Part shown: positions 1,216 through 45,733 of the stretch, piece by piece | How positions within the stretch are numbered: the first letter of the stretch is position 1 | Layout of the letters: every line of letters begins with the position of its first letter | Sequence record: SRR20825010_2634 | Reading direction: 5' to 3' (one strand) | Length of the DNA stretch: 50,085 bases | Position numbers and translations under genes: made by a program | Notes under the pieces: generated by a model | Seen by the model: the letters and a program-made list of their open reading frames with translations, nothing else | Told to the model about the DNA's origin: nothing | The model's database searches: none

Positions 1216-1434
1216 GAGAAACCAAAGTTGCGAGTGAGGTGAAGAAACGGAATCTCGAAACGTCAATGACGTCCGTGGCCCGCAGTAGCGAGACATTCGA
1301 GTTCTCGCCAACAATCTAAATGAGCGAGCGAACGACGTACTACCCGGGTGGCTTCAATTCGGCGGGGACCTGTGTATGTTTGGCCCCAATCTCTGACTCT
1401 TCGAACTCTTTTTCATTGTGCTGGCGTTCTTTTC

Positions 1435-2376
1435 ATGGCCGAGAACATTTTCCGTGGTTGCATTCCCGCTCTGATGACCCCATGCACCGCCGATGGCGAG
1501 CCTATGTGGGATGTGTTGGTCAAAACCGGCCAGGACCTGATCGAGCGAGGCATGCAAGCGGTGGTCTATTGCGGTTCGATGGGCGATTGGCCACTGCTGA
1601 GCGATCAACAACGCCAACAAGGCGTGACAGAATTGGTCCGGGCTGGCGTTCCTGTGGTCGTTGGCACAGGAGCCCAAAATACAAAGTTGGCCGCTGAACA
1701 CGCCGCCCACGCGGCCACCGTCGGCGCAGCCGGGTTGATGGTCATCCCCCGAGTGCTTTCGCGAGGGACATCGCCACAGGCGCAGGCCAACCACTTCACG
1801 CGAGTTCTTTCGGCCGGAGAAGCATTGCCCGCGGTAATCTACAACAGCCCCTACTACGGATTTGAAACCAAAGCTGATTTGTTCTTCGCCCTTCGCGAAA
1901 AACATACGAATCTGGTCGGCTTCAAAGAATTCGGCGGTGCGGAATCATTGTCGTACGCTGCGGAACACATCACCAGTGGAGATGCCAACCTGACCCTGAT
2001 GGTCGGCGTCGACACGCAAGTCTTCCATGGCTTTGTTCGATGCGGTGCGGCCGGAGCGATCACGGGCGTCGGCAACGCGTTGCCAACCGAAATCTTGAAG
2101 TTGGTCGATCTTTGCCAGCGAGCGCAAAACGGCGACGTGAAAGCTCGCCGATTCGCAGCCGAACTCGAAAGTGCGTTGGCGGTTCTTTCCAAGTTTGACG
2201 ACGGCCCGGACTTGGTCCTGCACTACAAGTACTTGATGGTGCTGGAAGGCCACGCCGAGTACGAACATCACTTCAACAAGAACGATCAACTGAGTGACAG
2301 CCAACGCGAATTTCTCCATGACCAATGGCGGCTGTTCCGCACATGGTGGTCAAATTGGCCGGGCAAAGATGCTTGA
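1435..2376 (+). CDS. Dihydrodipicolinate synthase family protein, resembling 1-pyrroline-4-hydroxy-2-carboxylate deaminase (LhpC type)
   Basis: IPALMTP, YCGSMGDW, VIYNSPYY and GFKEFGG (Schiff-base Lys). Start at MAENIF (1435). Confidence 0.8.
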   Translation: MAENIFRGCIPALMTPCTADGEPMWDVLVKTGQDLIERGMQAVVYCGSMGDWPLLSDQQRQQGVTELVRAGVPVVVGTGAQNTKLAAEHAAHAATVGAAGLMVIPRVLSRGTSPQAQANHFTRVLSAGEALPAVIYNSPYYGFETKADLFFALREKHTNLVGFKEFGGAESLSYAAEHITSGDANLTLMVGVDTQVFHGFVRCGAAGAITGVGNALPTEILKLVDLCQRAQNGDVKARRFAAELESALAVLSKFDDGPDLVLHYKYLMVLEGHAEYEHHFNKNDQLSDSQREFLHDQWRLFRTWWSNWPGKDA

Positions 2377-2419: not shown

Positions 2420-4273
2420 CTAGCGAAGTGACGCAGGATCAGCGTCCGCATTCGAAAACGCGGCAGCTTCATTGCTGGCATGCTGCGAGCCTTGCAACAT
2501 TTCGTCAGTCAGATCCAACACCACGACCTGTTCCTCCACCGACAAATTGTCACGCGAACGAACAGTCAGACGAATCTGATATCGCCCGGCGTCGATTTCC
2601 GCAGGAAGATGAAATTGCAATTCGCGTTTCTGGCCGGGAGCCAACCAGCGGCCGAAGCCGTCCAACAACCGGTGAGGACGTGAACCATCGTCACGTCCCA
2701 ACAGCAATTCACCTTGGATCGGCGCGTAGCCTTCGCCTTCGTTGGCGACTTCAATCACGAACGCGTTCCCGTCGGTCAGGTTTGCCCACTGCAATGGTCC
2801 GGCCGCGACGGTCAATTGCGGCCGTTGTTGATGAACCAATTCAAGAGGCAATGAGGTTGCGGACTCAACGTCGTTTGGCGATTTGAGGTTCCGGCGAATG
2901 ATGTCCAACGTTCCCCACTGCGACGATTCTTTGGACACACCTCGCAGCAAGGCACGGATGGTTTTGGATCGACCGGCGTCCAATTCAAACTTGGTGCTCG
3001 ACAACATCAGACGACTCATCGGGTCGCCGAGATGATCGCGAGGAACCAAATGAATCAACTGGTCATCGTCGCTGTTGTTCTTCACTTCCAAAGTCACCAT
3101 TCGTTGTGTCCCTTCGACACGCCCCAGTTCGATCTGTGCTGGTTCCAATGTCACACCGGGGCCTAAGTTGGCGATGCGAGTGTCCAAAGCTCGAAAGGAA
3201 TTCACCAGCAACGTCTGTGGGAACGTCCGCTCCAACATCGTTCGACGGCCGTTGCTGACCATCAAATTCAAATCGTATCGTCCATCAATCAACGACGTCT
3301 CCAGCGGAGCCTCCAAACGCAGGCGAGCGTTGGGCATCATGCGGACCAAATACTTCTCGTCATCGTCCAGGTTGGCCCGCGAAGGCATGAACAATGCGAT
3401 CGGATCGGACGAGCGAGACTTCGATGCATTGGCGGATTCTTTGTGCGACAGCTCCGCTCGAACACGACACTCCAGTGCAAAGTTACTTGGGTTTTTGACG
3501 TAAGCGCGGATGTACGGCATGCCTTCGTGCGAGACGACTTGAGCGTCTTCGATTTCCATCTGCTCAATGCTGCTCAGGTTTGTCAGACCCGTTTCAACGT
3601 CCACGCGAAGAACATACTGCGTGACGTAGCGGATGGCGGCTCGCGTTTGACCTCCGATGGCATCGTCCTCCGTCGGTTCGTCGACCATTCCCTCATCGCG
3701 AACCAACAACCCAAACGACAAATAGTTTGTCTTCGCCAGCGGGATCGTCACCGTCCCCTTTAGTTCCACCGTTTCGCCCGCATTCAAGGTGAACCGGGTC
3801 GGAGTCGTGAACTTCACGCCTTCCATCGGCGGGCTGTGTTCATCATGCAAGATGATACCGGACTCCTCCTGTCGCAATTGAATCGGCGACACATCAATCT
3901 GCATCGTCTTGCCCGTCGATGTGACCGTGAACGAGAAAGGGATCACCTCTCCGCGGCGTCCCTTGAACCGTTGCACGACTGGCTCAATTCGAAACGCTTG
4001 TTCGACTCGTTGTTCGATGCTCACCCGACGACCGTCGCGAGCGTCGATGGCCCCCGTCCGAACTCCGGGTGTTTGAGCTTGTACAACATTCGACATCATC
4101 ATCGATGCCAAACAAGCAAGCATCCAAATTCGTACGCGACGGGAGCGAACACACGCTGGCGAAGCGTTGTCTCGTTCCGCGTTGTACTCAAGAGGCTGTT
4201 GAATGAAACGCATCGTTGGCTGGATAAGAGCAAGTGTTTTCATCGAAGAGGTTGTCCGAGAGAAGAGCGTCAA
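2420..4273 (-). CDS. Exported protein with four predicted Ig-like domains, resembling a tandem PapD/DUF916-type pilus chaperone
   Basis: Signal-like segment MLACLASMMMSNVVQA-Q. Duplicated modules FRIEP..FTLNAGETVEL / VTLEP..FELDAGRSKTI and YVKNPSN..GRYDLNL / EVANEGE..GRYQIRL. True start uncertain, likely downstream of 4273. Confidence 0.6.
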   Translation of the reverse strand: MTLFSRTTSSMKTLALIQPTMRFIQQPLEYNAERDNASPACVRSRRVRIWMLACLASMMMSNVVQAQTPGVRTGAIDARDGRRVSIEQRVEQAFRIEPVVQRFKGRRGEVIPFSFTVTSTGKTMQIDVSPIQLRQEESGIILHDEHSPPMEGVKFTTPTRFTLNAGETVELKGTVTIPLAKTNYLSFGLLVRDEGMVDEPTEDDAIGGQTRAAIRYVTQYVLRVDVETGLTNLSSIEQMEIEDAQVVSHEGMPYIRAYVKNPSNFALECRVRAELSHKESANASKSRSSDPIALFMPSRANLDDDEKYLVRMMPNARLRLEAPLETSLIDGRYDLNLMVSNGRRTMLERTFPQTLLVNSFRALDTRIANLGPGVTLEPAQIELGRVEGTQRMVTLEVKNNSDDDQLIHLVPRDHLGDPMSRLMLSSTKFELDAGRSKTIRALLRGVSKESSQWGTLDIIRRNLKSPNDVESATSLPLELVHQQRPQLTVAAGPLQWANLTDGNAFVIEVANEGEGYAPIQGELLLGRDDGSRPHRLLDGFGRWLAPGQKRELQFHLPAEIDAGRYQIRLTVRSRDNLSVEEQVVVLDLTDEMLQGSQHASNEAAAFSNADADPASLR

Positions 4274-4317
4274 TGCTGAGTCGAAAGTTCACGCGGCATC
4301 GCGATCAGCACGCGAAA

Positions 4318-5841
4318 TTATCCACCCGAGGTGATGAATGCGCTGCCGGTCGATCGAACGATTCTTGGTGAGATAAAAATCACCACTTCCGCGTCGCGCG
4401 TTTGCCGCTGGGTCGTTTGAAAAAGGTAGCCCACTCCGGGCAGTCGACTCAGTCCTGGAATGCGATTGACTCGATCGACCGTCTCTCTTTGGACCAATCC
4501 ACCAATGACAATGGTTTTGCCGTCTTTGACACTGACCGTTGTGGAAACACTTCGGCGGTTGATGATCGGGAACTGATTGATTGACAGAGCCGGGGTTGCA
4601 TTTCGAACATCCTCACTGACTTCCGCTTTCTCGATATCGATCGTCACTTCGTCACCACGTATGTGTGGTGTGATGTCCAACATGATTCCGGCATCGACCT
4701 TTTGAATGTTCTGTTGAAAGAAAACCGAGTTGTTGCCGGTCGATCCCGGTGGTTGCACACTGAAGAACGTTTCGCGATTGATCGCGATGTTGGCTTGCTC
4801 GCCATCCTTGGCCATCACGTGTGGTGTCGCGCGGATGGTCAAGTAGCCTTTTTCGGAAAGCAATCGAACGAACGCGGAAGTGTTTCCAAAATCAGAGAAG
4901 ATCGCATCCAAACCGGCTTGCGAAAGTTCACCGTTCAACGCCAAACCAGACGCGCTGAGAGAGAGTTCCTTGACGCCGTCCATCTCGACCGCGTGTTGCC
5001 AATCCAACCCAAACTGAAAACCAGAGTCCGGCGACACCACACAAATGATTGCTTCCAACACCACCTGCGGAATCGGTTGATCGATGTTTTGAAAACGTGA
5101 CACGATGTCGTTAGCGATTCGCGGTGGTGCTTCGACCAACATTGTTTTGGCTTGCTCGATCACCGTCACGTATTGCAACCAAGACTCAGGTACGGTTTCC
5201 AACAACGTGTTTGGATCCATGTGCAGAGGTTGATACTGGGTCTTGATCGACACCATCGCGAAAAGTGGCGAGGCGGGATCGGGCGGCGCGACAATCAATT
5301 GTTTGCCGCGGCGGGACGATGCCAATCCCAACGGCAGCAAGACCTTTTCAACCGCTTCATCGACGGTCAGATCATTGATTTGTGCGTTGACAATTCCGGC
5401 TACGTTGTCGTCCAACACCAAATCCAAGTTGGCGTCGGTGGCCAACAACGTCAGCACTTCGCGAACATCAGTCTCGATGAATTCCTCATTGATCAAGTAG
5501 TCCTCGTCGTAGTTGACGCGAGCGATCTGCGACGATCGAGCCTGCGAGATTGGGATCAGTTCCAATGGAATGATCTCTTCCTGAGGCGTTTGGCTGAATC
5601 CATCAATCGAATGTTCCTCTTCGATGATCACGGTGTCGCCGTGATCAACCATCACGCCGTCAACGACGACAGAGTGATCGTGAACGTTTCCGATCATTTC
5701 CGGATCGCCGCCAGTGGCCGCGTTGGACTGATCCAATGATTGCTGGATCAATTCATCGATGGAGGTTCGATGGTAATCTGGCCGGTAGGCACACCCCACC
5801 AACGAGAAGAAAAAGCAGATCAACCCCAGCATTCTTTTCAT
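4318..5841 (-). CDS. Secretin (GspD/PilQ superfamily), predicted lipoprotein
   Basis: DVREVLTLLA (N0/STN), IDQPIPQVVLEAII, ATPHVMAKDGEQANI, GIMLDITPHI, VKDGKTIVIGGL, IPGLSRLPGVGYLF, VIFISPRIV. Lipobox MKRMLGLICFFFSLVG-C from 5841. Confidence 0.9.
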   Translation of the reverse strand: MKRMLGLICFFFSLVGCAYRPDYHRTSIDELIQQSLDQSNAATGGDPEMIGNVHDHSVVVDGVMVDHGDTVIIEEEHSIDGFSQTPQEEIIPLELIPISQARSSQIARVNYDEDYLINEEFIETDVREVLTLLATDANLDLVLDDNVAGIVNAQINDLTVDEAVEKVLLPLGLASSRRGKQLIVAPPDPASPLFAMVSIKTQYQPLHMDPNTLLETVPESWLQYVTVIEQAKTMLVEAPPRIANDIVSRFQNIDQPIPQVVLEAIICVVSPDSGFQFGLDWQHAVEMDGVKELSLSASGLALNGELSQAGLDAIFSDFGNTSAFVRLLSEKGYLTIRATPHVMAKDGEQANIAINRETFFSVQPPGSTGNNSVFFQQNIQKVDAGIMLDITPHIRGDEVTIDIEKAEVSEDVRNATPALSINQFPIINRRSVSTTVSVKDGKTIVIGGLVQRETVDRVNRIPGLSRLPGVGYLFQTTQRQTRDAEVVIFISPRIVRSTGSAFITSGG

Positions 5842-6091
5842 TCGAATGCAGAGCATCCGAGGGATCGGCTTCGGGCAAATCAAAAACAGCAACGATGCAT
5901 CTCATGTGGGCAAAGAAGCGAAACGAGATGTTTCACTGATCGTTGCTGTTAGTGGTTGTACAGTTGTACGCCCACCCCGATTCCTGAAGCGGTTGCGATT
6001 TACCACCGTAAAAAGCGTCATCAAATCGATCGTTCACGATCGTGACTCGTGCCAGCGTTCAGTAGCGTTGGGGCGGGAAACTACTGAGCAT

Positions 6092-6132
6092 CAATGCAGA
6101 CGGCCCGTGATTTCTCACGGGCCGTCGCATTG
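6092..6132. promoter_or_regulatory. Strong intercistronic stem-loop between pilin-like gene and secretin
   Basis: CAATGC-A-GACGGCCCGTGA-TTTC-TCACGGGCCGTC-GCATTG: a 12-bp perfect stem extended by 6 bp, without a clear U-tract. Confidence 0.7.
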
Positions 6133-6310
6133 TCGAGTTGTTGATCAAAGAAGTGCCGCAATCAGTTCAACGGGGCACTGTTGAACCAGGGGCAAATCAT
6201 GCGGTTTTCCAGATCGCGGTGACGTGGGCAGGTCACCGCTTTCAACTCGTGGGGATGGAATGAGTTCGCGAAAAACGAATCATCCAGGGGGCATCGTTAC
6301 TGATGACGGA

Positions 6311-6832
6311 TCAAAGAGCCGTGATCGTACCCGTCACGGTTGTCTCGTAAGTTCCCGCGGCGAATGAGCCGAACGTGCCAGTGATGAACTCGACAGACAA
6401 GTCCAACGTTGCATTCGAGACACCGTCACTGACGGCGGAAACGGTTGCGATGTTGACCGAGTTGGCATAGTCCGTTTGGCCGGTGGCCTGCGAGATCGAG
6501 AACGATCCCGGACCGGTTTGGCTGTTGATGGACAATCCCAATTTCGCATCTCGTTTGAAGTTGGGATCAGCTGTGTTCACAAACGGACCATTCGTCGCGA
6601 AAGAAACGCTCACACCGTTTTGGCTGTTGCCAATCACGTTCCACGGTTGCGCCGTGAAGGTTTGGTTGGCGTGAGTTTCATCGTGAGTCAGGACCGCGTC
6701 GGCAGGAGCCGTCACGCTCATCGCGACCGATACGTTCGCGGTGAATTTTTGTGAGTCCGTTGTGTCGGCGAACAATGTCGAGACGGAACCAGCGGACAAA
6801 AGGGCAGTCAGGGCAAGGGCAATTTTTTTCAT
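6311..6832 (-). CDS. Exported 173-aa beta-rich protein, Csu/SCPU-like fimbrial subunit candidate
   Basis: Sec signal MKKIALALTALLSAGSVSTLFA, Thr/Ser/Ala/Gly-rich mature part, N-terminal alternating strand FTANVSV and C-terminal AAGTYETTVTGTI. Start at 6832. Confidence 0.65.
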   Translation of the reverse strand: MKKIALALTALLSAGSVSTLFADTTDSQKFTANVSVAMSVTAPADAVLTHDETHANQTFTAQPWNVIGNSQNGVSVSFATNGPFVNTADPNFKRDAKLGLSINSQTGPGSFSISQATGQTDYANSVNIATVSAVSDGVSNATLDLSVEFITGTFGSFAAGTYETTVTGTITAL

Positions 6833-7206
6833 CGGTTTAAAATCATTCTTGGAGCAAAGTGGGCAATCTAGGAGCATGTCAATTCGAATCGCGAATCCAG
6901 ACTTCCGTGGGCAACCCACCGTCATTCGAAACAAGTTTCTCATGTTGGCCGGGTGGGTTCGTTCCGAAGTCCGCCATTCGTTTTGACACCGAAACGTAAG
7001 CTGCGTTTTTGCGTTCGGTCGCGCGGACAAATCAATTTTCATTCTCTGGCGAATAAAAACCGTTTGAAAAGTTCAGGCTAGAACCTGCTCAATGTTCAGA
7101 CGCTCCGCAGATTGGTCTGGTCTTGAACGCTTTCGATGCACTATGGAAGAGGCAACACTTACAAAATTCACCTTGTGAGCACGTACCCGGCAGGGGAGTT
7201 ACCGCC

Positions 7207-8562
7207 GTGCAGACTTTGAAAACAGCCGCCATTGTCGTACTCATGACGACGGTCCTTTACGGGGCCTGGATTTCGATGACGACGCCGCCAGATGCATTGC
7301 CGCCTGAAGTGGCGCGGGACCTCATCGTGGACGCCGATACTTTTGATATCAGCGATGGGATTCCTGAAGCCTTAGGCTCCCTCGACCCCCTCTCGGAGTT
7401 CGGGATTGATGACGGAACGGCGGCGGGTGCAGACTCATACGCTCAATCCGATGTCGGACTGAACGATCCAGCAAACGGCGGGTTCGAAGACTTGGACTCG
7501 GCCCTCGATGGCCCCGACTTCGATGCCGGACTCGACGCACCATCCGATCCGATGTCGATGGATTCCGTCAATCGAAGCTTTGCCGATATCCCGTCGCAAC
7601 CAGCTTCGGCGACGGACAACTTGGGTACGGAATCAAGTTCGTTCTCAATGTCTGATTTGGATTCGCCCGCCGCTGATATGCAAGCAAGCCGTTTGCCTGA
7701 GGTGACGCCTGGTTCAAGCACACCGATTCAACTGAATCCAAACCAAGAATACACGTCGACCGGAGCGACCTACCAGTCGCCAGATCCGAACACCGCGATT
7801 GCGTCGGTGAAGCCGTCCAAACAATCGACACCCGATGTGGTTGCGACTGAATCCAATGCGATCGCTTCGGCCGGTTTGAGCAACGCGATTGCGACCGCCG
7901 ATCGGCAGTATCATTCCGATCGTCGACGAGAAGCATTGGCAACGCTCAGCCTGTTCTACGAAACACCCAATTTGACAAGCGAGCAACGCGACGAATTGCT
8001 CAGTCGTCTTGACCCATTGGCCGCCGAAGTCATTTATTCGGCCGAGCATTTGTTGGCAGAACCGCACCGCGTGGGTCCCAACGAAACACTGATGGACATC
8101 GCGAAAAAGTATGAAGTGCCGTGGCAATTGCTGGCCAATATCAACGGAGTTGATGATCCAGTCACAATTTTGCCGGGCACCGATTTGAAGGTCGTTCGCG
8201 GCCCATTTCGTGGCGACATTGATCTGAAGTACCAAGAACTGACTTTGTTCCTGGGTGACTTGTACGCCGGACGATTCAAGATTGCCGTTGGAAACGATCC
8301 GGCTCCTAAACCTGGTTCGTACACCATCCAAGAAAAGCAATCCGCGAAGACTTACTACGACATGTCAGGCACACCGATCCCGCCCGGCAACCCACGCAAC
8401 CCATACGGGTCGATGTGGATCGATTTGGGATCCGGTTTGAGCATCCACGGAAGTCCCGATGCGAACGCTCCGACCGACAAGGGCTGCATCAGCCTGGCCG
8501 GCAATTATTCGCGTGACGTGTTTGGCATTCTGTCCGAAGGATCGTCGGTCACGATCCGCTAG
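7207..8562 (+). CDS. Membrane-anchored LysM + YkuD L,D-transpeptidase family protein
   Basis: N-terminal TM, acidic low-complexity linker, LysM (HRVGPNETLMDIAKKYEVPWQLLANIN) and YkuD (IAVG..GSYTI..NPYGSMWI..SIHGS..KGCISL). GTG start at 7207 follows GGGGAG. Confidence 0.85.
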   Translation: MQTLKTAAIVVLMTTVLYGAWISMTTPPDALPPEVARDLIVDADTFDISDGIPEALGSLDPLSEFGIDDGTAAGADSYAQSDVGLNDPANGGFEDLDSALDGPDFDAGLDAPSDPMSMDSVNRSFADIPSQPASATDNLGTESSSFSMSDLDSPAADMQASRLPEVTPGSSTPIQLNPNQEYTSTGATYQSPDPNTAIASVKPSKQSTPDVVATESNAIASAGLSNAIATADRQYHSDRRREALATLSLFYETPNLTSEQRDELLSRLDPLAAEVIYSAEHLLAEPHRVGPNETLMDIAKKYEVPWQLLANINGVDDPVTILPGTDLKVVRGPFRGDIDLKYQELTLFLGDLYAGRFKIAVGNDPAPKPGSYTIQEKQSAKTYYDMSGTPIPPGNPRNPYGSMWIDLGSGLSIHGSPDANAPTDKGCISLAGNYSRDVFGILSEGSSVTIR

Positions 8563-8641: not shown

Positions 8642-9532
8642 CTACTTTTGCCGATTCAGCCGCATCAAAGCGGCGAGCTCGACCAAGTGGCGAAGCGAAT
8701 CGCAATGAGCTGTGTATCGCAATCGCGGTCGCAACTTGTCACACAGCGCTCGGCCACCGATTAGCAATGGGACATCTTCTCCCAACGAATCGGCCAACTG
8801 GTTTTGAGCCGCGACAAACATCCCCGGTTCGCTAACCGAGGAAACGCTCATCCAAACCATTTGCGGGTCGTAATCATGCGCCGCTTGGACAAAGCTTTCC
8901 ATGGGAAGGTCATTGCCGAGACTGGTCGCATTCCAACCAACTTCGCGAAGTGCCAATTCGACCAGCATCGTTGGCAACTGGTACGGATCCCCTTCGGGTG
9001 CACCGCCGATCGCGATCGGAGCGGACTTGGGGGGTGATGGGATCTCAGAACGCAACTCGTAGATCAATCGCATCGCGATGTCACATCCACGGCGTTCTTG
9101 ATAGACGTCCAGTTCGTTGCTGTCCCAAGCTTCACCGAAACCGTGCATGGCATCGGTGATCAATGACTCAGCCGCTTCGCTTCGCGTGTTTCCCGATGCG
9201 ATCTTCTGAGCCATCAACTTCCGACAGGCCGCTTCGTCGCCTTGGGCCAACGAATCGCGAAAATTTTGATTCAGTGGGTCTTCGTTTCCTTCTATGCGAG
9301 TCGTCCGATCCGGCGACAACTGAGGCAGACCCAACAACTCGGGCTTCAGCAAGCAGCGGTCGTTGGCGTGAACGAACGCCTGCAACGCGTCCAGAGTGAT
9401 CCGGCGATGGCCACCCGCTGTTTTGATGACCGGAATTGTGCCGTTGTCACACCATCTCTTCACCGACGACTCGCTGACCTCCATCGCCGCGGCGACTTCT
9501 TTCGGTGAAAACTGGGGCTGACGGGCTGCCAC
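8642..9532 (-). CDS. MerR-like HTH + B12-binding-domain regulator (CarH/LitR-like)
   Basis: FSPKEVAAAMEVSESSVKRWCDNG..KTAGGHRRI HTH, a helical cap with GEAW, and a Rossmann domain (LGNDLPMESF, VWMSVS, LLIGGRA). GTG start at 9532 preferred because the longer ORF runs through the operator repeats. Confidence 0.8.
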   Translation of the reverse strand: MAARQPQFSPKEVAAAMEVSESSVKRWCDNGTIPVIKTAGGHRRITLDALQAFVHANDRCLLKPELLGLPQLSPDRTTRIEGNEDPLNQNFRDSLAQGDEAACRKLMAQKIASGNTRSEAAESLITDAMHGFGEAWDSNELDVYQERRGCDIAMRLIYELRSEIPSPPKSAPIAIGGAPEGDPYQLPTMLVELALREVGWNATSLGNDLPMESFVQAAHDYDPQMVWMSVSSVSEPGMFVAAQNQLADSLGEDVPLLIGGRALCDKLRPRLRYTAHCDSLRHLVELAALMRLNRQK

Positions 9533-9564
9533 GAGACACGCTGGGATGAGAGAGAAGAACGAAG

Positions 9565-9817
9565 TGAACGTTTTGCAGGACAAGGTGAACGTTTTAAACA
9601 CCTCAGTTGAACGTTTCCAGTGTAATCGGCTGACAATGGTGGACGTTTATCGCTCATTACTCGCTCGAGCAGTGAACGATTTCCGATCGTTTCGCCGCGA
9701 TCTTCGACTTTGCAAATACAAGGAATTCTTTATTCGACGGGAATTTCGCTTGCATTCGGTTTTGCAGGCCGATATACCAATGGACGTTCTGAACGTTTTT
9801 GAAGCCCAAAACGTTCA
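9565..9817. promoter_or_regulatory. Array of TG(A/G)ACG(T/A)T boxes, candidate operators
   Basis: Copies at 9565, 9586, 9608, 9640, 9673, 9781 and 9790, plus an inverted copy at 9808. Perfect inverted repeat TGAACGTTTT-N8-AAAACGTTCA at 9790-9817. Confidence 0.75.
9750..9778 (+). promoter_or_regulatory. Candidate sigma70-type promoter of the sigma-factor operon
   Basis: TTGCAT-N17-TATACC immediately upstream of the 9781-9817 boxes. Confidence 0.45.
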
Positions 9818-29732: not shown

Positions 29733-30701
29733 GTGAACCCGTCATTGATCGCCGCCGGTTTCTTTTTCGCCGCGGTCTTGATTGCAATCGGTTACATCCT
29801 CGGACGTCGACGCGGCAAAGTCGCGAAGGCGATCCCACAAGGACCGATCATTCAAGAGGACGAGCGTCAACGCATGTTGGGCTTGCTCGAAGGTCTGTCA
29901 CGTTGGACCAACGAGTACTCAGGCAACGTTTCGAACTATCAAAGCGAACTGGGCGAACTCAGCGACGCGATGAGGATCAGTTTGCAACAATCGCGTTCCG
30001 GCGCCACCCGCAACGGCAGGGCCAACGACAATCAACAAGCCAGCGACGCAAGGATGGTGACGTTGATCAATCAGATCATGTCAACGAACACCGAGTTGCA
30101 AACACGTTTGGAAGCCGCTGAGCAGCAACTCGAAGAACAAACCGAACAAATCCAGTCCTACCTCACGGAAGCTCGCACGGACGGTCTGACGGGTCTCTTC
30201 AATCGACGAGCCTTCGACAAAAAACTCGACGAGTTGTTTTCCGCCTACCGCGCCGGTGGCAAGTCGTTCACGCTCATCTTGATGGACATCGATCACTTCA
30301 AGATGATCAACGATACACATGGTCACCCGATCGGCGACATCGTTCTGCAACAGATTTCGCAACGACTCGGTCATGGGATGCAAGACGCCGAGATCGTTTC
30401 GCGATTCGGCGGCGAAGAATTCGCGATCTTGACGCATCTACCGATTCGCGCCGCGGCCGAAAAAATCAACAAACTGCGAGACCGCATTGCGAACGATCCG
30501 GTCGATGCGGGTTCCGCCGAATTGCAAGTCACACTCAGCGTTGGACTGAGTACGCCCCACGAAGATTTGGTCATCGGTCCGATCGTGCGTCGTGCCGATG
30601 AGGCTCTTTATTCGGCCAAGAACATGGGACGAAACCGCGTCTACTTCAACGACGGCAACGGTGCCCAATTGATCAACGCTCCCGAAGTCATTCGCTCATA
30701 A
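29733..30701 (+). CDS. Membrane-anchored diguanylate cyclase (GGDEF)
   Basis: N-terminal TM, coiled coil, TDGLTGLFNRR, DIDHFKMINDTHGH, RFGGEEF and ADEALYSAK. Confidence 0.93.
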   Translation: MNPSLIAAGFFFAAVLIAIGYILGRRRGKVAKAIPQGPIIQEDERQRMLGLLEGLSRWTNEYSGNVSNYQSELGELSDAMRISLQQSRSGATRNGRANDNQQASDARMVTLINQIMSTNTELQTRLEAAEQQLEEQTEQIQSYLTEARTDGLTGLFNRRAFDKKLDELFSAYRAGGKSFTLILMDIDHFKMINDTHGHPIGDIVLQQISQRLGHGMQDAEIVSRFGGEEFAILTHLPIRAAAEKINKLRDRIANDPVDAGSAELQVTLSVGLSTPHEDLVIGPIVRRADEALYSAKNMGRNRVYFNDGNGAQLINAPEVIRS

Positions 30702-36628: not shown

Positions 36629-37711
36629 TCAGGCTGCGGTTGCTTGCGGAACTTTCTTACCTTGCATTTGATAGACGTAACGCAAGATTTCCGCCACCGC
36701 TTGGTACTGCTCCGCCGGGACTTCTTGTCCCACGTCGACCAATTTGTACAACGCCTGGGCCAGCTCTTTTCGCTCCACCACAGGAATGCCATTTTCCAGT
36801 GCCAAGCGTCGAATGCGCTGGGCGATCATGCCCGCGCCTTTTGCCACCACGATCGGAGCCGGCATCGTCAACGGATCGTACTTGATCGCAATCGCAAGTT
36901 CGGTCGGGTTGCTGGCCACCACATCGGCTTTGGGAACTTCGGATCCGAGTTGTCCCATCGCCAATTGGCGTGCAACCTGACGCCGACGAGCCGCCACCTG
37001 CGGGTCGGCCTCGGTGTCTTTCATTTCGTCACGAACTTCCTGGTCCGTCATCATCAAGTCTTGTTCCGTTTTCCACCACTGATACACGTATTCGAGCAGT
37101 GCCAACACAAACAAACCGACGCCGATCCACAACGACACACCAAACAAGGTGTCAAACATCGACTTGGCCAATTGTGGCACCGACAACGAAGCCATCGAGA
37201 TCACATCACCGTGGTGAGCCCGAAGTGCTAAGTACGCGATCCCGCCGATGATGCCGACTTTGAACATTCCGAACACCAATCGCATCACGCCTTGAAGCGA
37301 CAGAATTCGCTTGGCCCCAGACATTGGGCTGATGTTGCTCAACTTTGGCATCAACTTGTCGGTCGAAAGCAACAATCCAGACTGAAACACGTTGATCAAC
37401 ACGCCACCGATGAACATCAGGATCATCATCGGCACGGCTGCCATCGCCAATCGTTGCGAGATTTGCAACATGTACTGCGTGGCATCTTGATTGGTCATCG
37501 GTGCAAGCTTCGTTTCGCCGAGGGCCTGTTCAATGCCTCCTGACAAATAGGCCGCCATGTTTCCACCGATGGCGTAAAGAGCTCCGATCGCGGCCAGCAG
37601 CAGAGTCGCAGATGTCAGGTCCTGGCTTTTCGCGATCTGGCCTTTTTCGCGAGCCTGCCTGCGTTTGCGTTCTGACGCTGAGTGTTTCTTATCTCCACCG
37701 GAATCAGACAT
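36629..37711 (-). CDS. flhB: Flagellar export switch protein FlhB
   Basis: AREKGQIAKSQDL, LMMTDQEVRDEMKDTEADP, NPT and APIVVAKG. Confidence 0.95.
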   Translation of the reverse strand: MSDSGGDKKHSASERKRRQAREKGQIAKSQDLTSATLLLAAIGALYAIGGNMAAYLSGGIEQALGETKLAPMTNQDATQYMLQISQRLAMAAVPMMILMFIGGVLINVFQSGLLLSTDKLMPKLSNISPMSGAKRILSLQGVMRLVFGMFKVGIIGGIAYLALRAHHGDVISMASLSVPQLAKSMFDTLFGVSLWIGVGLFVLALLEYVYQWWKTEQDLMMTDQEVRDEMKDTEADPQVAARRRQVARQLAMGQLGSEVPKADVVASNPTELAIAIKYDPLTMPAPIVVAKGAGMIAQRIRRLALENGIPVVERKELAQALYKLVDVGQEVPAEQYQAVAEILRYVYQMQGKKVPQATAA

Positions 37712-40223: not shown

Positions 40224-41639
40224 ATGTTCACGAGCCCATTCTCAATCCGATTGCTGCTCATCCCCGCTCTTGCCCTTTTGATGTCGCTGCCGGCCGCGGC
40301 TCAGCCTCCGGGCCGAGGTGGATTTGGCGGAGGCGGATTCGGCGGAGGTGAGGGCGGCGATCGAGGCGGCCGCGGTGGTGATCGCGGCGGCGGAGGAGGA
40401 GGCGACCGTGGCGGTCGTGGTGGCGGCGAACGCGGCGGTGGTGACCGTGGAGGCGGCGGTGGCGATCGAGGTGGACGTGGCGGCCCCGGTGGTGGATTTG
40501 ACCCGGCCAGCATGCTGCAACGATTGGATCGCAACGGAAACGGCACGCTGGATCCCGATGAACAAGAAGGCCCCGCCGGATTCCTGATCCGTCGACTCGA
40601 AGCAACTGACTCCAGCATCAAGGCCGGCACACCAATTCCGCTGTCGAAATTCAGCAGTGCGTTTGAAAAAATGCGTCAAGAACGCGAGGGCGGTGGTGAC
40701 TCTCGCGGCGACAGTGATCGCCGTAGCAGTCGCGACACGGACGACATGGAACTGGAAATGCTTGTTCCGGGATTTGGCTTGGAAGCGGAACCCGTTTTGG
40801 TTCCCGGTTTTGGCCCAGCCGCCGAAATGATGTCCACACCCACCACCGAGGAAGATCGCAAATCCGCTCGTGAAGTCTTGTCTCGCTACGATCGCGACAA
40901 AGACGGCCAGCTCGGTAAAGATGAAATCTCCAGCCGTTTCTGGGGAAATCCGATGGACTTTGACCGCAATGGCGATGGCAAGCTCTCCGAAATGGAGCTG
41001 GCAACCCGTCAGGCCGTCCGTCGTGGCAACGAGGAAGAACGTCGAGACGATCGTCGCGATGACCGCCGCCGAGGCGACGACGACGATCGCGAAATTGTGG
41101 AAGTCGATTTTGGTGGACGAAAGTCCTACCGTGTGCAGGGACCGAGTATGGCCGAGGGCATGCCCAGTTTCTTTGCTCAACGCGACCTCAACCGCGACGG
41201 ACAAGTTTCGATGAACGAGTACACCAGCGATTGGACTCCGGCTCGGGTGGAAGAGTACTACCGTTGGGACCAAAACCAGGACGGAGTCATCACGCAAACC
41301 GAAGTTCGCCAAGGCGTCAATGATGGCGCCGTGGCAACTGACGCCCCAACCGGCCGTGCCGCACCAGGTTCTTCTGCCACCGCGCGTTCAGCCAGCTCGG
41401 GATCAAGTTCCGGGCGTTCAAGCAATTCCCCCGTCGCTGATGGCCCGCCGCCAACGGAAAAAGAACTGAAATACGCCGCGACCATCATTGGTCGATACGA
41501 CGGCAACAAGGACGGAGCTTTAACGGCGACCGAATGGAAGTCGATGTTGCTCAGTCCTGCTGGTGCAGATTTCAACGGCGATGGTCGCGTCACGATTCAG
41601 GAGTACGCTCAGCACATGGCGAATCGATCCAAACGTTGA
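40224..41639 (+). CDS. Exported multi-EF-hand Ca-binding protein with RGG-rich N-terminus
   Basis: Signal peptide AAA-Q, (GG)DRGG repeats and seven DxN/DxDG-type loops. Confidence 0.85.
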   Translation: MFTSPFSIRLLLIPALALLMSLPAAAQPPGRGGFGGGGFGGGEGGDRGGRGGDRGGGGGGDRGGRGGGERGGGDRGGGGGDRGGRGGPGGGFDPASMLQRLDRNGNGTLDPDEQEGPAGFLIRRLEATDSSIKAGTPIPLSKFSSAFEKMRQEREGGGDSRGDSDRRSSRDTDDMELEMLVPGFGLEAEPVLVPGFGPAAEMMSTPTTEEDRKSAREVLSRYDRDKDGQLGKDEISSRFWGNPMDFDRNGDGKLSEMELATRQAVRRGNEEERRDDRRDDRRRGDDDDREIVEVDFGGRKSYRVQGPSMAEGMPSFFAQRDLNRDGQVSMNEYTSDWTPARVEEYYRWDQNQDGVITQTEVRQGVNDGAVATDAPTGRAAPGSSATARSASSGSSSGRSSNSPVADGPPPTEKELKYAATIIGRYDGNKDGALTATEWKSMLLSPAGADFNGDGRVTIQEYAQHMANRSKR

Positions 41640-41645
41640 TCGCGG

Positions 41646-42308
41646 TCAAACCAAGATTTGGTTCAGCTCGTCGTTGATGGCACGAGCGGAGCGGAGATTT
41701 TGGAAGACACATCCGCATTCGCAGCGATCATCCTCGGTGCGTCGAAGCCAAATCACCGTCACAGTGCCGCTGACGCCCGATGGGGTGCTGATCAACAATC
41801 GCTCGGACGGATCGACTTGTCCGAGCAATGTGATTCGCATTCCCGACGCCGAGCAATCTTCTAGAACGACATCGTTGACTTCTGATTTGCCGTGTGCCCG
41901 ACGGACTTGAACAGGCATTCCAACCTGCATCCGTTCTTCTTCCCGGCGCGTGATCAAGCCTTCGTCCACCATCTGATCGATCAAATCCAAATCGATAGGG
42001 CGGCGGAAACGGAATCCGAAGGTGTTCGATCCCACCGACGTTTGCTGATTCCAACAAAGCCGGCCGGCCACTTCCAGTTCGATCCCCAGCGTCGGTGCAT
42101 TGATTCGAAGCACGGCGATGGTGACGTTGGAATCCTCACCCAACTTGGCCCGAATCGCGCAACCACCTTGGCTCAGGTCAGCTAACTGACAATCGTATTC
42201 CTTCACTATGTCGTCGCGAAGAATCACCACGACAGCCTTCAAACGGTCACGATGCTTCGCATAAAAACGATCGCTCGTTCGGTTTTGGCCGTTCACGTCA
42301 CGCGTCAT
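41646..42308 (-). CDS. Tandem PilZ-domain protein
   Basis: RTSDR..DLSQGG and REEER..DCSASG motif pairs. Confidence 0.8.
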   Translation of the reverse strand: MTRDVNGQNRTSDRFYAKHRDRLKAVVVILRDDIVKEYDCQLADLSQGGCAIRAKLGEDSNVTIAVLRINAPTLGIELEVAGRLCWNQQTSVGSNTFGFRFRRPIDLDLIDQMVDEGLITRREEERMQVGMPVQVRRAHGKSEVNDVVLEDCSASGMRITLLGQVDPSERLLISTPSGVSGTVTVIWLRRTEDDRCECGCVFQNLRSARAINDELNQILV

Positions 42309-42540: not shown

Positions 42541-44394
42541 ATGTTGCGTCCCCACCGCCATTCAGTTGCCTCTGCCAGTTGCCGTGCCCGCGGTCGGCAG
42601 CGACGGCGATTTCGGATGCTCATGATCTTCGGTTTGGTACCGCTGACGTTGCTGGCTCAACCCTCGTTTGCACAAACGACTCGGACCAATCAATTCGTCA
42701 CCGGAACTTCGGATGCCACCGAGATCACCGCGGCCCCCGGTGTCGCCACCGCTCGGCTGATGCTGCCCCAATCGAGCTCGACGATCGTCAAACAGCCCAC
42801 CTCGCAAGCCCCGCCTGAATGGTCGACGCCGCTCGCCGCGTCCCATGATGCAGAACCGGCCGGATTCTCGGGACAGATCCCGGTCGGCCCTCATCAAAAC
42901 AGCTTTGAATCGTTTCAACCCGTTGCGGTCGGCGAAGAACCTCAACCGACCGAGGCCCCTCGCATCGCGATGCGTCCGCAAGAACGGACCAACGATACGC
43001 TCCGCACGCCTCGTCAAAGCCAGCCGAACAAGCCCGCTGCAGGTGCGAGACCTCAACGTTTGCCGATGGCTGAACCATCACCACAAACCACGACGGAAAT
43101 CGCCGCGTCCAAATCCACCGCTCAACGATTTGCCGAAGTGATCGCCGAGCGGCGTGCAACGGAACAAGCCAAATCGCCCGTCACACCACCGGCCGCCGCA
43201 TCGGGCATGTTCCTGGCGACTCAAACAGCCAAGTCAAAACTCGATCAAGCTTGGAAGCATTTTCAACAAGCCGAGCTGGAATACAGTTCCGCGGCTTACG
43301 CATCGGCTGAAACATCTGCTTGGCAAACGTTGCACTTGGCCGCCGAAGCGATCGATCTACACGAACAACACACCCGTTCGCGCACCGCAATCGAATCAGG
43401 ACAGGCCGTCGCGGCGGCTCCTTCGCGTTCGGCCGTTCGACATTTGCAATCCGGTCGAGACGCACTCAACGAAGCACAAGATTTCGTCGGCCCGTACGCC
43501 ACGGACGATCCCGAATCGATCGCACGTTTGGCTCGATCGCACCGCACTCCTGTCGTCCGACAAGGTCTCCCACGTCGCGGCCGAGCGGCATCGGCTTCGC
43601 ATCCCGATTATCAATCCGCTCCCAAAGATGAGCTTGGTTGGTACACCGAGATGCAGGTCGAAAGCACCGATGGTGCAACGCAATCGATTCCAACCGCCAA
43701 CGAGGCCATCGATCGCTACCTTGATTTGGCTCGGATGGAACTCAGCGAAGTCGCGGCTCAAAGCTTACTCGCCGCACAAGCCATGGATTTGCTCGCAGCG
43801 ATTCGACTCGGTCGAGGTGAAGCCACCCAATTGCCTGGACCTTCCGCCATTTGCCTGAGACGAGCGGCTGTGCAAGGTCAAAGCAACAACCCGGACTTGG
43901 TTGCCAAACTTGGGTATCACTTGGCTGATGTTGGTTTGATCGAAGAAGCCACCTGGGCGTTGCAACATTCACTGACGCTTCGATACGACGTCCACGTTCT
44001 GCAAAAGCTTAACCAAATCGAATCCTTGTCGCCCGCCGCCACCACGGTCTTGAAGGGTGCTCCGATTCGGTCGCAAGCACAAACTCGACGCACACCCGAC
44101 GTGGTCACGATGTCGCCTGAACAATTCGCATCAGTCTCGCGCAGCATCATCCCAGCACAAACCGGCGACGCACAAAACAACACTGGATCGGTGAACGCGA
44201 AGAACGTTTCGACAAACTTACCCGTTCACACTCAACCGGCCAGCTACCGCTTGATGAACACTCCGCCCGCAACGGCGGCGTTGGGACAATCACTCGCTGT
44301 CCCTGAATCGAATTCGAATGAGACGCCTGAGCCAACTCAACAACCGACTCGAAACAGTTCACGTTTCTTGCCTCAACTCAAAAAGTGGTGGTAA
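42541..44394 (+). CDS. Hypothetical exported protein with helical/TPR-like region
   Basis: Signal peptide ending SFA-Q, Pro-rich linker and a TPR-like segment (NPDLVAKLGYHLADVGLIEEATWALQHSL). Ends 4 bp before the Wza-like gene. Confidence 0.7.
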   Translation: MLRPHRHSVASASCRARGRQRRRFRMLMIFGLVPLTLLAQPSFAQTTRTNQFVTGTSDATEITAAPGVATARLMLPQSSSTIVKQPTSQAPPEWSTPLAASHDAEPAGFSGQIPVGPHQNSFESFQPVAVGEEPQPTEAPRIAMRPQERTNDTLRTPRQSQPNKPAAGARPQRLPMAEPSPQTTTEIAASKSTAQRFAEVIAERRATEQAKSPVTPPAAASGMFLATQTAKSKLDQAWKHFQQAELEYSSAAYASAETSAWQTLHLAAEAIDLHEQHTRSRTAIESGQAVAAAPSRSAVRHLQSGRDALNEAQDFVGPYATDDPESIARLARSHRTPVVRQGLPRRGRAASASHPDYQSAPKDELGWYTEMQVESTDGATQSIPTANEAIDRYLDLARMELSEVAAQSLLAAQAMDLLAAIRLGRGEATQLPGPSAICLRRAAVQGQSNNPDLVAKLGYHLADVGLIEEATWALQHSLTLRYDVHVLQKLNQIESLSPAATTVLKGAPIRSQAQTRRTPDVVTMSPEQFASVSRSIIPAQTGDAQNNTGSVNAKNVSTNLPVHTQPASYRLMNTPPATAALGQSLAVPESNSNETPEPTQQPTRNSSRFLPQLKKWW

Positions 44395-44398
44395 GACC

Positions 44399-45733
44399 AT
44401 GCGATTGATTTCTCGTCTCTCATCGATCTGTCCGCAATCGATCAATATCATTGCCGCTCTCGTCGTGATTGGGCTTTGTTTATTGCAAGTCCAAACCGCA
44501 AATGCGCAATTGAGATCGGGTCAGCTGTTACCGGCCTCCGATTCGCAACGTGTTCCCGTTCCGTCGCACACGGTCAACACACATTCAAACGTCGCGCACG
44601 CACCAGCCTGGAATGGTCCAGGTTCGCAAAGTGCATGTGGGCCATGCGGATCGTGTGGAACGCACATGGTTTTGACCGCCGAAGGTTACGGTTGCCCCAA
44701 ATGCATGCTGGGCGTTGACTGTGCAACCGCCTGCGGCAGCGAAGCTCGTTGGCAGGACATGAAGCCAATGGACTTCGACAAATACGGACCGGGCGGCTAC
44801 ACCGGTCCAGCCCGGATGCGACATCTGGCGAAATACCATGTTCGTCCCGGCGATCAGCTTCAAATGGTTTACTTGGTCACTCGTCGACAAGACGCGGGTC
44901 AGTATCGTCTCATGCCCGGCGACCAAGTCTCGATTGAATCCATCGCCGATGAAGACTTGGATCGCGGGACCCTGGAAAGCGGCTTGTTGATTCAACCCGA
45001 TGGTTCGATCACGGTGCGTTTGCTCGGGCAAGTCCAAGCGGCCGGACTGACGGTGCCGGGTCTGCGAGACTTATTGGAACGCGAATACAAAGCGTTTTAC
45101 GATGATCCGGCAATCGACGTCACGCCCGTTCGCACCAATACATTGGCAGAAGACATCCGCGCCGCTGTCGGTGGACTCGGTGGGTTCACCGCGCAAGCCA
45201 TCACGACGACGGTCATGCCCGACGGTCACGTTCGATTGCCAGGCATCGGCCAAGTCAGCGTGCAAGGGTTCACTCTGGAACAACTCAAACGCGAAATCAA
45301 TTTGCGATACGCGGAAGTTGTGGTCGGACTGGAAGTCGAACCGATCCTGACACAACAAGCACCACACTTCGTTTATGTGCTCGGACAAGTCGGACTGCCT
45401 GGACGTCAAGAGATCACCACGCCGACGACCGTGCTCGGTGCCATCGCAGCCTCGGGTGGTCACCTGCCCGATGGCAACCTACGTCAGGTCATCGTGTTCC
45501 GGCGTGCGGAAGATTGGCGAATGATCAGCACCATGCTGGACCTCAACGGAGCGATCCGCGGGAAACGCCCGACCCCTGCCGATGAAATTTGGGTTCGCGA
45601 TGGCGACGTGATCGTCATCCCCGATCGCCCGATCACCGTGTTCGGCGACTTCGTCCGCCAAGTCTTCACCGAAGGCGTCTACGGCATCGTTCCCTTCGGC
45701 GGATTCTCATTCACCAGTGACACAGCGAACTAG
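44399..45733 (+). CDS. Polysaccharide export protein (Wza/OPX family)
   Basis: YRLMPGDQVSI, IQPDGSITVRLLGQVQAAGLT, VMPDGHVRLPGIG, VYVLGQVGLPG and VRDGDVIVIP. Start at 44399. Confidence 0.88.
   Translation: MRLISRLSSICPQSINIIAALVVIGLCLLQVQTANAQLRSGQLLPASDSQRVPVPSHTVNTHSNVAHAPAWNGPGSQSACGPCGSCGTHMVLTAEGYGCPKCMLGVDCATACGSEARWQDMKPMDFDKYGPGGYTGPARMRHLAKYHVRPGDQLQMVYLVTRRQDAGQYRLMPGDQVSIESIADEDLDRGTLESGLLIQPDGSITVRLLGQVQAAGLTVPGLRDLLEREYKAFYDDPAIDVTPVRTNTLAEDIRAAVGGLGGFTAQAITTTVMPDGHVRLPGIGQVSVQGFTLEQLKREINLRYAEVVVGLEVEPILTQQAPHFVYVLGQVGLPGRQEITTPTTVLGAIAASGGHLPDGNLRQVIVFRRAEDWRMISTMLDLNGAIRGKRPTPADEIWVRDGDVIVIPDRPITVFGDFVRQVFTEGVYGIVPFGGFSFTSDTAN

Follow-up and report, generated by a model that had tools for sequence, protein, structure and literature searches.

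Can a donor-strand pilus leave a bacterium that has an outer membrane when the locus encodes no usher? To our knowledge, it is the usher that defines the donor-strand pili of Gram-negative bacteria, and ATP-driven piston or pilus machines that define secretins. The question is raised by three genes that lie head to tail on the minus strand of sequence record SRR20825010_2634 (a stretch of 50,085 nucleotides, hereafter the window) and encode a small pilin-like subunit (6311-6832), a secretin (4318-5892) and a chaperone-like protein (2420-4273). Proteins of the window that have named relatives in sequence search point to Rhodopirellula. An initial annotation, made from the letters of the DNA alone, had proposed a hybrid pathway in which donor-strand pilins are held by a chaperone and exit through a secretin. 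We favour, with somewhat better than even confidence, a self-contained, usher-less, three-gene system of a diderm bacterium in which a thin, chaperone-guided donor-strand surface fibre would leave the cell through the secretin. Conserved synteny, the protein folds, a predicted chaperone-subunit complex and the absence of an usher speak for the proposed pathway, whereas polymerization and passage through the secretin are steps that we infer. If true, a conserved module of donor-strand chaperone, subunit and secretin would break both defining rules mentioned above.

The coordinates and orientation of the three genes agree with the initial annotation, and the features of the locus are as follows.

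6311-6832, minus strand: putative major fibre subunit gene; open reading frame (ORF) of 173 residues with a signal peptide at residues 1-22 and a predicted immunoglobulin (Ig)-like, pilin-type fold
6704-6766, minus strand: N-terminal extension of the mature subunit, a candidate donor strand; translation DTTDSQKFTANVSVAMSVTAP; family motif Q-x-[FY]-x-V-x-V-P
6314-6358, minus strand: C-terminal strand of the subunit, residues 159-173; motif G-x-Y-x-x-x-V-x-x-x-I; predicted to form one wall of the acceptor groove
4318-5892, minus strand: liposecretin gene; Pfam Secretin and STN domains, lipobox
About 5284-5424, minus strand: STN/N0-like domain of the liposecretin (Pfam)
About 4354-4860, minus strand: secretin core (Pfam)
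2420-4273, minus strand: gene of a putatively periplasmic, chaperone-like protein with four Ig-like domains; ORF of 617 residues, domains from an AlphaFold2 model
3134-4000, minus strand: chaperone domains 1 and 2, a WxLIP-like module; residues 42-330 of the 567-residue form; predicted to hold the subunit
3599-3655, minus strand: predicted donor strand of the chaperone, GGQTRAAIRYVTQYVLRVD; residues 157-175 of the 567-residue form; most conserved stretch of the family
2519-3160, minus strand: chaperone domains 3 and 4, a PapD-type two-domain module by its fold matches; residues 322-535

Conservation and distribution of the locus

Matches of the subunit profile in species-representative genomes defined 26 related loci. 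The order subunit, secretin, chaperone on one strand is kept in 20 of them, and this arrangement is far beyond chance. In two distant planctomycetes, related only at phylum level to G001, the order is rearranged to secretin, chaperone, subunit; G001 is the nearest genome for comparison, a complete genome (99%) that has 60% of the window's sampled words in common. The exceptions are L007, in which the locus is interrupted by a contig end; L012, L013, L015 and L026, in which an adjacent secretin-chaperone pair is found elsewhere in the same genome; and L005, for which the only chaperone homologue on record is P0038, from a metagenome-assembled genome of the same name.

All-against-all clustering of the ORFs of at least 110 residues from 24 loci showed how far this linkage extends to other genes. 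The clustering left out L001 and L028 (two short copies of a single place), L019 (which nearly duplicates L020 and is truncated by a contig end), L029-L032 (short versions of places otherwise represented) and L038 (on the same contig as L027), together with L005, L007, L012, L013, L015 and L026, which have no secretin-chaperone pair in the stretch. Only three real families recur throughout, namely the secretin (24/24 loci), the chaperone (24/24) and the subunit (22/24). A fourth cluster proved to be an antisense shadow ORF within the secretin gene, and the next real family, a GerE/LuxR-type regulator, is present in 7 of the 24 loci. Neither an ATPase, platform or prepilin gene nor an LPxTG or sortase gene is a recurring neighbour among these 24 loci. 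The secretin and chaperone genes commonly overlap by 4 bases.

The initial annotation had noted no usher, ATPase, platform protein or prepilin next to the three genes, and this extends to the whole window, as none of the 36 ORFs scanned (30 of them further ORFs of at least 220 residues) belongs to an usher, type II secretion system (T2SS) or type IV pilus (T4P) ATPase, platform protein or prepilin family. An usher is also missing on the genome scale: the usher family PF00577 gave no match in the nearest complete genome and none in the 201 genomes of its family, with a positive E. coli control, and PapD_N had no Pfam match in the nearest genome.

The subunit profile matches 4 of 401 genomes sampled evenly across the phylum (3/244 of high quality) and 20 of 201 genomes in the family of G001 (17/145 of high quality; 17 of 126 genera). 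The system is thus a patchy accessory trait that is gained and lost as a unit. Because only 20 of the 201 family genomes have it, it is not the general planctomycete stalk or crateriform fibre, and the suggestion of surface fibres or stalk material cannot hold for planctomycetes in general. Dextran-binding fibres are described on Planctopirus and Gemmata in the cited text (PMC5394234). They are not explained by this system.

The subunit

The product of 6311-6832 starts with a Sec-type (type I) signal peptide, MKKIALALTALLSAGSVSTLFA, and continues as a beta-rich protein that ends with AAGTYETTVTGTITAL. The initial annotation had recognized this exported protein of 173 residues and quoted its C-terminal end three residues short. 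A longer ORF starts from the ATG at 7042; this start is probably not used because the homologues begin at the MKK position. Among 1.84 billion cluster representatives, a profile search recovered 299 relatives (E ≤ 0.001), and all 10 hits that carry an organism name come from Planctomycetota.

Membership in the Csu/SCPU or CS1-type pilins, which the C-terminal strand had suggested, is not supported by the sequence. The SCPU/Csu-type family PF05229 matched neither the window subunit (E ≤ 0.1) nor any of 46 relatives (E ≤ 0.05). More generally, the window subunit had no Pfam family at E up to 0.1 and no NCBIfam match, the 46 relatives had no relevant Pfam family, WxL included, at E up to 0.05, and a profile of 127 sequences had 0 sequence matches in the PDB. 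A cluster of look-alikes found with a protein language model at rank 30 carries SCPU on 14% of its members, which we treat as a lead only. By these sequence comparisons, the subunit founds a new family without a Pfam or PDB relative.

The fold was more informative. AlphaFold2 modeled the subunit as a beta sandwich (predicted local distance difference test (pLDDT) 78.9, from 15 sequences) with about the first 15 mature residues as a low-confidence coil in the monomer. The best PDB matches in Foldseek were CfaB (the CFA/I pilin, E 1.1e-3), CS17, Pyrobaculum bundling pili and Caf1. In a Foldseek-independent search of 48,161 representative chains, 26 of the best 50 rows were chaperone-usher or archaeal donor-strand subunits by title (best Z 7.9), and in a second fold search 39 of the best 50 rows were of the donor-strand type (best match the cannula protein CanA, Z 8.0), with many entries of the same proteins among the rows of both. 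No WxL chain was among the matches listed for the subunit model (50 rows per fold search), which is not evidence that the folds differ. Donor-strand pilins are thus the nearest structures, and a donor-strand pilin fold of the subunit is likely as judged from the model.

Two stretches stand out in the column statistics of the 127-sequence alignment. In the N-terminal extension, Q28 is present in 99 of 117 sequences and positions 30, 32 and 34 are hydrophobic in 97-98%, while in the C-terminal motif G160 is present in 127/127 and Y162 in 123/127 sequences.

Two odd members of the family were set aside. P0141, which joins a cadherin-like domain to the C-terminal half of the subunit, was considered as a two-domain tip adhesin and rejected, since the junction falls inside the fold and there is no signal peptide; it is probably a chimeric or partial metagenome ORF. 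P0080 was likewise rejected as a natural fusion, being a read-through of two neighboring subunit genes that looks like an assembly or gene-calling artefact.

Subunit paralogues in related loci

In 17 of the 20 loci with the complete arrangement, a second subunit gene lies between the first subunit gene and the secretin gene. The second subunits keep the core and the C-terminal motif, but 15 of the 17 align to the profile only from position 30 or beyond and show no Q-x-F-x-V-x-V-P motif. The distal tip subunit of a chaperone-usher pilus accepts a strand and cannot donate one. By analogy, the second subunit, without the N-terminal strand, is a candidate distal tip.

Third subunit paralogues follow the chaperone gene at four places.

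L009, 12484-13062: third subunit paralogue, after the chaperone gene
L010, 5799-6353: third subunit paralogue, after the chaperone gene
L011, 12471-13040: third subunit paralogue, after the chaperone gene
L023, 10897-11505: third subunit paralogue, after the chaperone gene

These four keep the N-terminal motif and have a Cys in the last strand, with the ending x-C-T-[IV]-x-x-P versus G-T-I-T-A-N, and the L009 protein has a lipobox-like LIGC. From these sequence features, the third subunit could be a candidate terminator or anchor.

The chaperone-like protein

The initial annotation had described the product of 2420-4273 as an exported protein of about 600 residues with duplicated Ig-like modules, a tandem chaperone. 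Homologues of 556-607 residues, compared with the ORF of 617, suggest that the true protein falls in that range and starts at or near 4123. An AlphaFold2 model from 44 sequences shows four Ig-like domains (mean pLDDT 82.8) with a low-confidence loop at about 147-164 of the 567-residue form, where pLDDT falls below 50 at 158-164.

Structural comparison with VIA-align gave different neighbors for the two halves. Domains 1 and 2 best match the WxLIP of Enterococcus faecium (PDB 9i1y; Z 15.1, 240 aligned residues, root-mean-square deviation 7.2), whereas domains 3 and 4 match nine chaperone-usher chaperones, namely CsuC, FimC, YadV, SafB, EcpB, CfaA, PapD, CupB2 and FaeE, within the best 16 rows (Z 11.2-13.0, 165-184 aligned residues). 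In Foldseek, the top hits of the chaperone are ASH/PapD-like repeat proteins of cilia, followed by WxLIP 9i1y (E 3.8e-10), 9i25, in which WxLIP is bound to a WxL protein (E 1.9e-9), and FimC. The sequences give fainter signals of the same kind. Sub-threshold Pfam matches in the family comprise WxLIP_HBD (PF11797) in 7 of 44 members (best E 2e-4), PapD-like in 5 of 44 and PapD_N in 1 of 44 (E 0.0057), while PF06030 (DUF916) does not appear among the families recorded at E ≤ 0.01 for these 44 members and NCBIfam gave nothing for the chaperone. Look-alikes from the language model, which are leads only, include clusters with some WxLIP_PGBD members and one named PapD chaperone. The PDB hits of the chaperone profile to ribosomal protein L15 and Pvc1 were discarded as chance-level.

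The four Ig-like domains thus stand by fold, but a duplication is not visible in the sequence. In an internal-repeat test, hhalign aligned domain 1 with domain 3 at a probability of 66% over 36 columns and the N-terminal half with the C-terminal half at 35%, with all comparisons other than domain 1 versus domain 3 at or below 35%, so we do not claim a tandem duplication by sequence. The idea of a tandem chaperone also needs to be modified. The C-terminal pair does resemble PapD-type chaperones in its fold, but the N-terminal pair is WxLIP-like and the predicted subunit holder, so these are not two equal PapD copies.

Six residues do not vary in the family alignment of 44 sequences: A162, T168, Q169, Y170, L172 and R173. 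The C-terminus is hydrophilic (…QGSQHASNEAAAFSNADADPASLR; no transmembrane predictor was used), and two more Ig domains follow the WxLIP-like pair.

The predicted chaperone-subunit complex

A complex was predicted from chaperone residues 38-548 and the mature subunit (residues 23-173); the supplied alignments were not used. The interface score ipSAE was 0.82, 0.82 and 0.81, compared with 0.00 in all three controls; of 78 solved complexes 51 attain this mark, and of 108 mismatched pairs 2 do. At least 77% of contacts are common to the runs, and pLDDT of the partners is at least 82. The confident interface comprises chaperone residues 42-50, 90-93, 142, 157-173 and 248-252 and, on the side of the subunit, residues 35-50 and 159-173 together with scattered core residues. 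Invariant residues of both families are among them.

The closest pairs are parallel, with chaperone 163-168 facing subunit 163-168 and chaperone 161-168 running alongside the last strand of the subunit, and chaperone 163-164 is in contact with subunit 46-47 as well, on the opposite side. Contacts of the chaperone strand to subunit 162-168 and 46-47 have the least expected error. Because of this pairing register and the contacts to 46-47, the chaperone strand is placed between an early strand and the last strand of the subunit, parallel to the last. No other part of the chaperone family is as conserved as the inserted stretch, TRAAIRYVTQYVLRVD, which is partly disordered in the apo model. Subunit residues 23-34, which hold the Q-x-F-x-V-x-V motif, lie outside the confident interface with the chaperone. 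In the PapD and FimC complexes, a parallel inserted strand is the geometry of donor-strand complementation. The chaperone-subunit contact is thus predicted, in the model, to be donor-strand complementation.

The secretin

The product of 4318-5892, which the initial annotation had recognized without hesitation, scores 145 bits for the Pfam Secretin domain (PF00263; E 2.2e-42, cut-off 27.5 bits) and also matches an STN/N0 domain below threshold (E 1.7e-5). By these matches it is a true secretin. Translation probably begins at the ATG at 5841, and the Cys of the lipobox MKRMLGLICFFFSLVGC (…FFFSLVGC) lies at 5791-5793. A lipobox-type Cys is found in 21 of 24 secretin homologues (16 by a strict pattern and 5 by eye), and the other 3 are ORF calls without the N-terminus. 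In alignments to GspD, a single N-domain precedes the core, which we take to resemble the short pIV-type architecture.

Proposed mechanism and alternatives

The proposed mechanism begins with export. From their signal sequences, the subunit and the four-Ig protein would be exported by Sec, and the secretin would be exported and lipidated. In the periplasm, the domain 1 strand TRAAIRYVTQYVLRV is predicted to insert into the open groove of the subunit, between about 44-50 and 159-173, and so to prime it by donor-strand complementation, as PapD-type and WxLIP/ElrE-type chaperones do. The N-terminal extension of the subunit with its Q-x-F-x-V-x-V-P motif would stay free while the chaperone is bound. 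Donor-strand exchange would follow at the outer membrane, the chaperone strand in the previous subunit being displaced by the N-terminal strand of the next one to arrive, and the linear polymer would grow from its base and exit via the liposecretin in the place of the usher. The PapD-like domains 3 and 4 may, more speculatively, dock the loaded chaperone on the periplasmic N-domains of the secretin or hold a second subunit. In the Rhodopirellula locus of the window, with the major subunit only, the product would be a tipless homopolymer, while in other genera the second subunit may serve as the tip and the third as a terminator or anchor. The mechanism does not explain how a gated secretin opens without a motor. 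As a tentative extension, which we rate a little short of an even chance, ATP-free donor-strand exchange itself would drive the fibre out through the secretin, and the chaperone may represent an evolutionary link between monoderm and diderm pilus chaperones.

Several points weigh against the donor-strand fibre. The fold scores of the subunit are middling by the grading of the tool (Z ≤ 8.0, Foldseek E about 1e-3), and the Ig-like fold is common. The good score of the complex may reflect the memory that the model has of solved chaperone-pilin and WxLIP-WxL complexes, that is, likeness and not binding. The subunit gene is separate from the secretin and chaperone genes in four loci, and G001 has a single subunit gene and hence no set of tip and terminator. 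Help from a machine encoded elsewhere is conceivable, given the T2SSE ATPase and secretin matches of that genome. Finally, we know of no secretin that passes a donor-strand fibre, and the exit of the subunit from the cell is a step that we infer.

The alternative that fares best is a minimal chaperone-secretin secretion of a non-polymerizing protein, which would be handed to the secretin and released or kept at the surface as a monomer or small oligomer (a matrix, S-layer-like or adhesive protein). The conserved triad and the predicted binding fit this equally well, and it is established for the T2SS that secretins pass folded proteins. However, a monomer would have no evident use for the conserved, putatively free N-terminal strand and its alternating hydrophobic residues, paralogues that lack exactly that strand are not explained, and the nearest folds of the subunit are mostly polymerizing donor-strand subunits. 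We therefore consider a non-polymerizing cargo unlikely.

It is more doubtful still that the secretin is the outer-membrane part of a T2SS, T4P or Tad machine encoded elsewhere, with the small protein as its cargo or accessory and the Ig protein as a pilotin-like protein or another cargo. In G001 the T2SSE ATPase family is matched 12 times (11 of these at E ≤ 5e-30) and there are six secretin genes (seven matches), and the closest solved secretins are GspD and PilQ (E about 1e-22). On the other side, the secretin falls short of all NCBIfam subtype cut-offs (at best 153 bits, to GspD, where the cut-off is 351), no ATPase, platform or prepilin gene recurs in the 24 loci or is present in the window, the ATPase gene nearest to the triad in the related genome is about 127 kb away, and the triad comes and goes as a unit among the family genomes (20/201).

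A non-exported scaffold in the periplasm or across the envelope, in which the Ig protein and the small one would lie beneath or inside the secretin ring, is equally improbable: multi-Ig proteins are often scaffolds, the ciliary ASH/PapD-like repeats that lead the Foldseek list of the large protein are scaffold repeats, and exit of the subunit is a proposed step, but the patchy distribution speaks against a core envelope structure, the two-domain matches span whole pilus chaperones, and the geometry of strand insertion is that of a transient priming complex.

Comparison with known systems

The donor-strand fibre reading shares features with four kinds of known systems and coincides with none. 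Like the subunits of the chaperone-usher pili (Csu, CFA/I, type 1 and P), those of the triad are Sec-exported, likely Ig-fold proteins with a putatively free N-terminal strand, and no ATPase is encoded with them. A periplasmic Ig-domain chaperone with a strand predicted to run parallel to the last strand of the subunit, several subunit paralogues per operon with one that lacks the donor strand, and the match of domains 3 and 4 to whole chaperone-usher chaperones are further likenesses. The triad differs from these pili in having a secretin gene where they have the usher and a chaperone of four domains instead of two, with the predicted binding module in the non-PapD half; by sequence, none of its proteins belongs to the pilin, PapD_N or usher families.

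The WxL/Elr pili are the second comparison. A preprint of October 2026 (bioRxiv 10.64898/2026.10.17.759780) shows the DUF916/DUF3324 proteins (WxLIP, ElrE) to be membrane-anchored donor-strand chaperones of a Gram-positive pilus; as far as the cited text goes, the WxL system is reported only in Bacillota, its chaperones have no sequence link to PapD-type chaperones, and 96.7% of them carry a C-terminal membrane helix. The WxLIP structures 9i1y and 9i25 are, as described above, among the nearest to the chaperone studied here, with domains 1 and 2 giving the best structural match and the family giving weak WxLIP_HBD hits. Here too a strand of the first domain is predicted to complete the subunit, and in both systems there is no usher and tipless operons occur. 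However, the host here is a diderm, the chaperone appears soluble with two extra Ig domains where the WxL proteins have a C-terminal membrane helix, the subunit lacks a WxL domain, LPxTG and sortase genes do not recur beside the locus, and a secretin is present.

Secretin machines (GspD of the T2SS, PilQ of T4P, RcpA of Tad and pIV of filamentous phage) share the bona fide core and an N0/STN-like domain with the secretin of the triad, and its lipoprotein form is reminiscent of the liposecretins. They differ from the triad, in which no ATPase, platform, pseudopilin or prepilin peptidase is linked to the secretin. What constantly accompanies this secretin is a chaperone-like protein with Ig-fold subunits, and the signal of the subunit is of type I and not class III.

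Pam pilins form chaperone-guided donor-strand pili outside the usher pathway and are, in the cited text of another preprint, reported only in CPR (candidate phyla radiation) bacteria (bioRxiv 10.64898/2026.03.03.709456). Together with chaperone-free filaments (TasA, archaeal bundling pili and cannulae), they resemble the present system in their Ig-like subunits, their donor strands and the absence of a classical usher, and the subunit has CanA and the bundling pili among its closest fold matches. Their hosts, unlike that of the triad, have no outer membrane or secretin, and no sequence relation was found.

In the literature searched, as far as titles and abstracts show, no paper links a secretin to a donor-strand pilus. 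What appears to be new, if the models are correct, is a secretin in the place of the usher together with a four-domain chaperone that joins a WxLIP-like and a PapD-like pair, so that both known architectures of pilus chaperones would be combined in one chain. The locus would extend the theme of chaperone-guided, usher-independent donor-strand assembly from Bacillota and CPR bacteria to a diderm phylum, and it would add a new class of cargo for secretins, with the question of how a gated secretin opens without an inner-membrane motor. It would also give a molecular handle on one uncharacterized fibre of marine planctomycetes, and the size of three genes should ease its rebuilding in a laboratory host.

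Non-coding elements, transcripts and neighboring genes

The non-coding spacer of 418 bp between the subunit gene and the secretin gene contains one feature.

6099-6126, minus strand: hairpin with a 12-bp stem and a 4-nt loop in the subunit-secretin spacer; candidate attenuator or RNA-stabilizing element

The hairpin lies 185 nt past the stop codon of the subunit gene. Its stem is perfect, and an identical copy is found at the same relative position in two related genomes (L001/L028 and L002). It was not called by the terminator scan because it has no T-tract, and the scan for promoters and terminators gave nothing above shuffled expectation. By analogy with the attenuators of other pilus operons, the hairpin may set the ratio of subunit to machinery.

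Evidence on RNA comes from contigs of two marine metatranscriptomes, in which uncovered parts are uninformative. A contig of 862 bases from one marine library spans 6137-6968 and thereby the subunit gene plus the untranslated flank on either side; it ends 11 bases short of the hairpin, and adapter sequence is present at 6968. A separate contig of 1410 bases covers part of the chaperone gene. These contigs give a weak hint of expression, as they do not show transcript ends, strand or level and DNA may occur in such libraries.

In many genera, a gene for a GerE/LuxR-type regulator lies directly upstream of the first subunit gene, as in L003, L004, L008-L011 and L023, with a receiver domain in L009. 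In L005, L012, L013 and L015 the subunit gene also comes after such a gene, so that the regulator gene stays with the subunit gene even where the latter has parted from the secretin-chaperone pair. The GerE/LuxR-type protein is a candidate dedicated regulator. In this window no such gene is adjacent to the triad.

The flanks are as the initial annotation had described them, a convergent and a divergent gene that are unrelated to the cluster. Pfam identifies the convergent one as a DHDPS-family gene (1348-2376, plus strand) and the divergent one as a LysM/YkuD L,D-transpeptidase gene (7123-8562, plus strand). The L,D-transpeptidase has a long acidic, low-complexity N-terminal half and is found near the locus only in the close relatives L002 and L004 and in L001/L028, which represent the same place. 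Two genes upstream of the subunit gene, 8642-9601 (minus strand) encodes a MerR-type helix-turn-helix fused to B12-binding domains, which is beside the locus in L002 too; this is the layout of the light-sensing CarH/LitR-type regulators.

Farther away, the window encodes a GGDEF cyclase (29733-30701), an FlhB export gate (36629-37711), a protein of 471 residues with many EF-hand motifs (40224-41639), a tandem PilZ protein (41646-42308) and a Wza-like polysaccharide export protein (44318-45733). Together, these five genes look like a neighborhood of surface and cyclic di-GMP functions.

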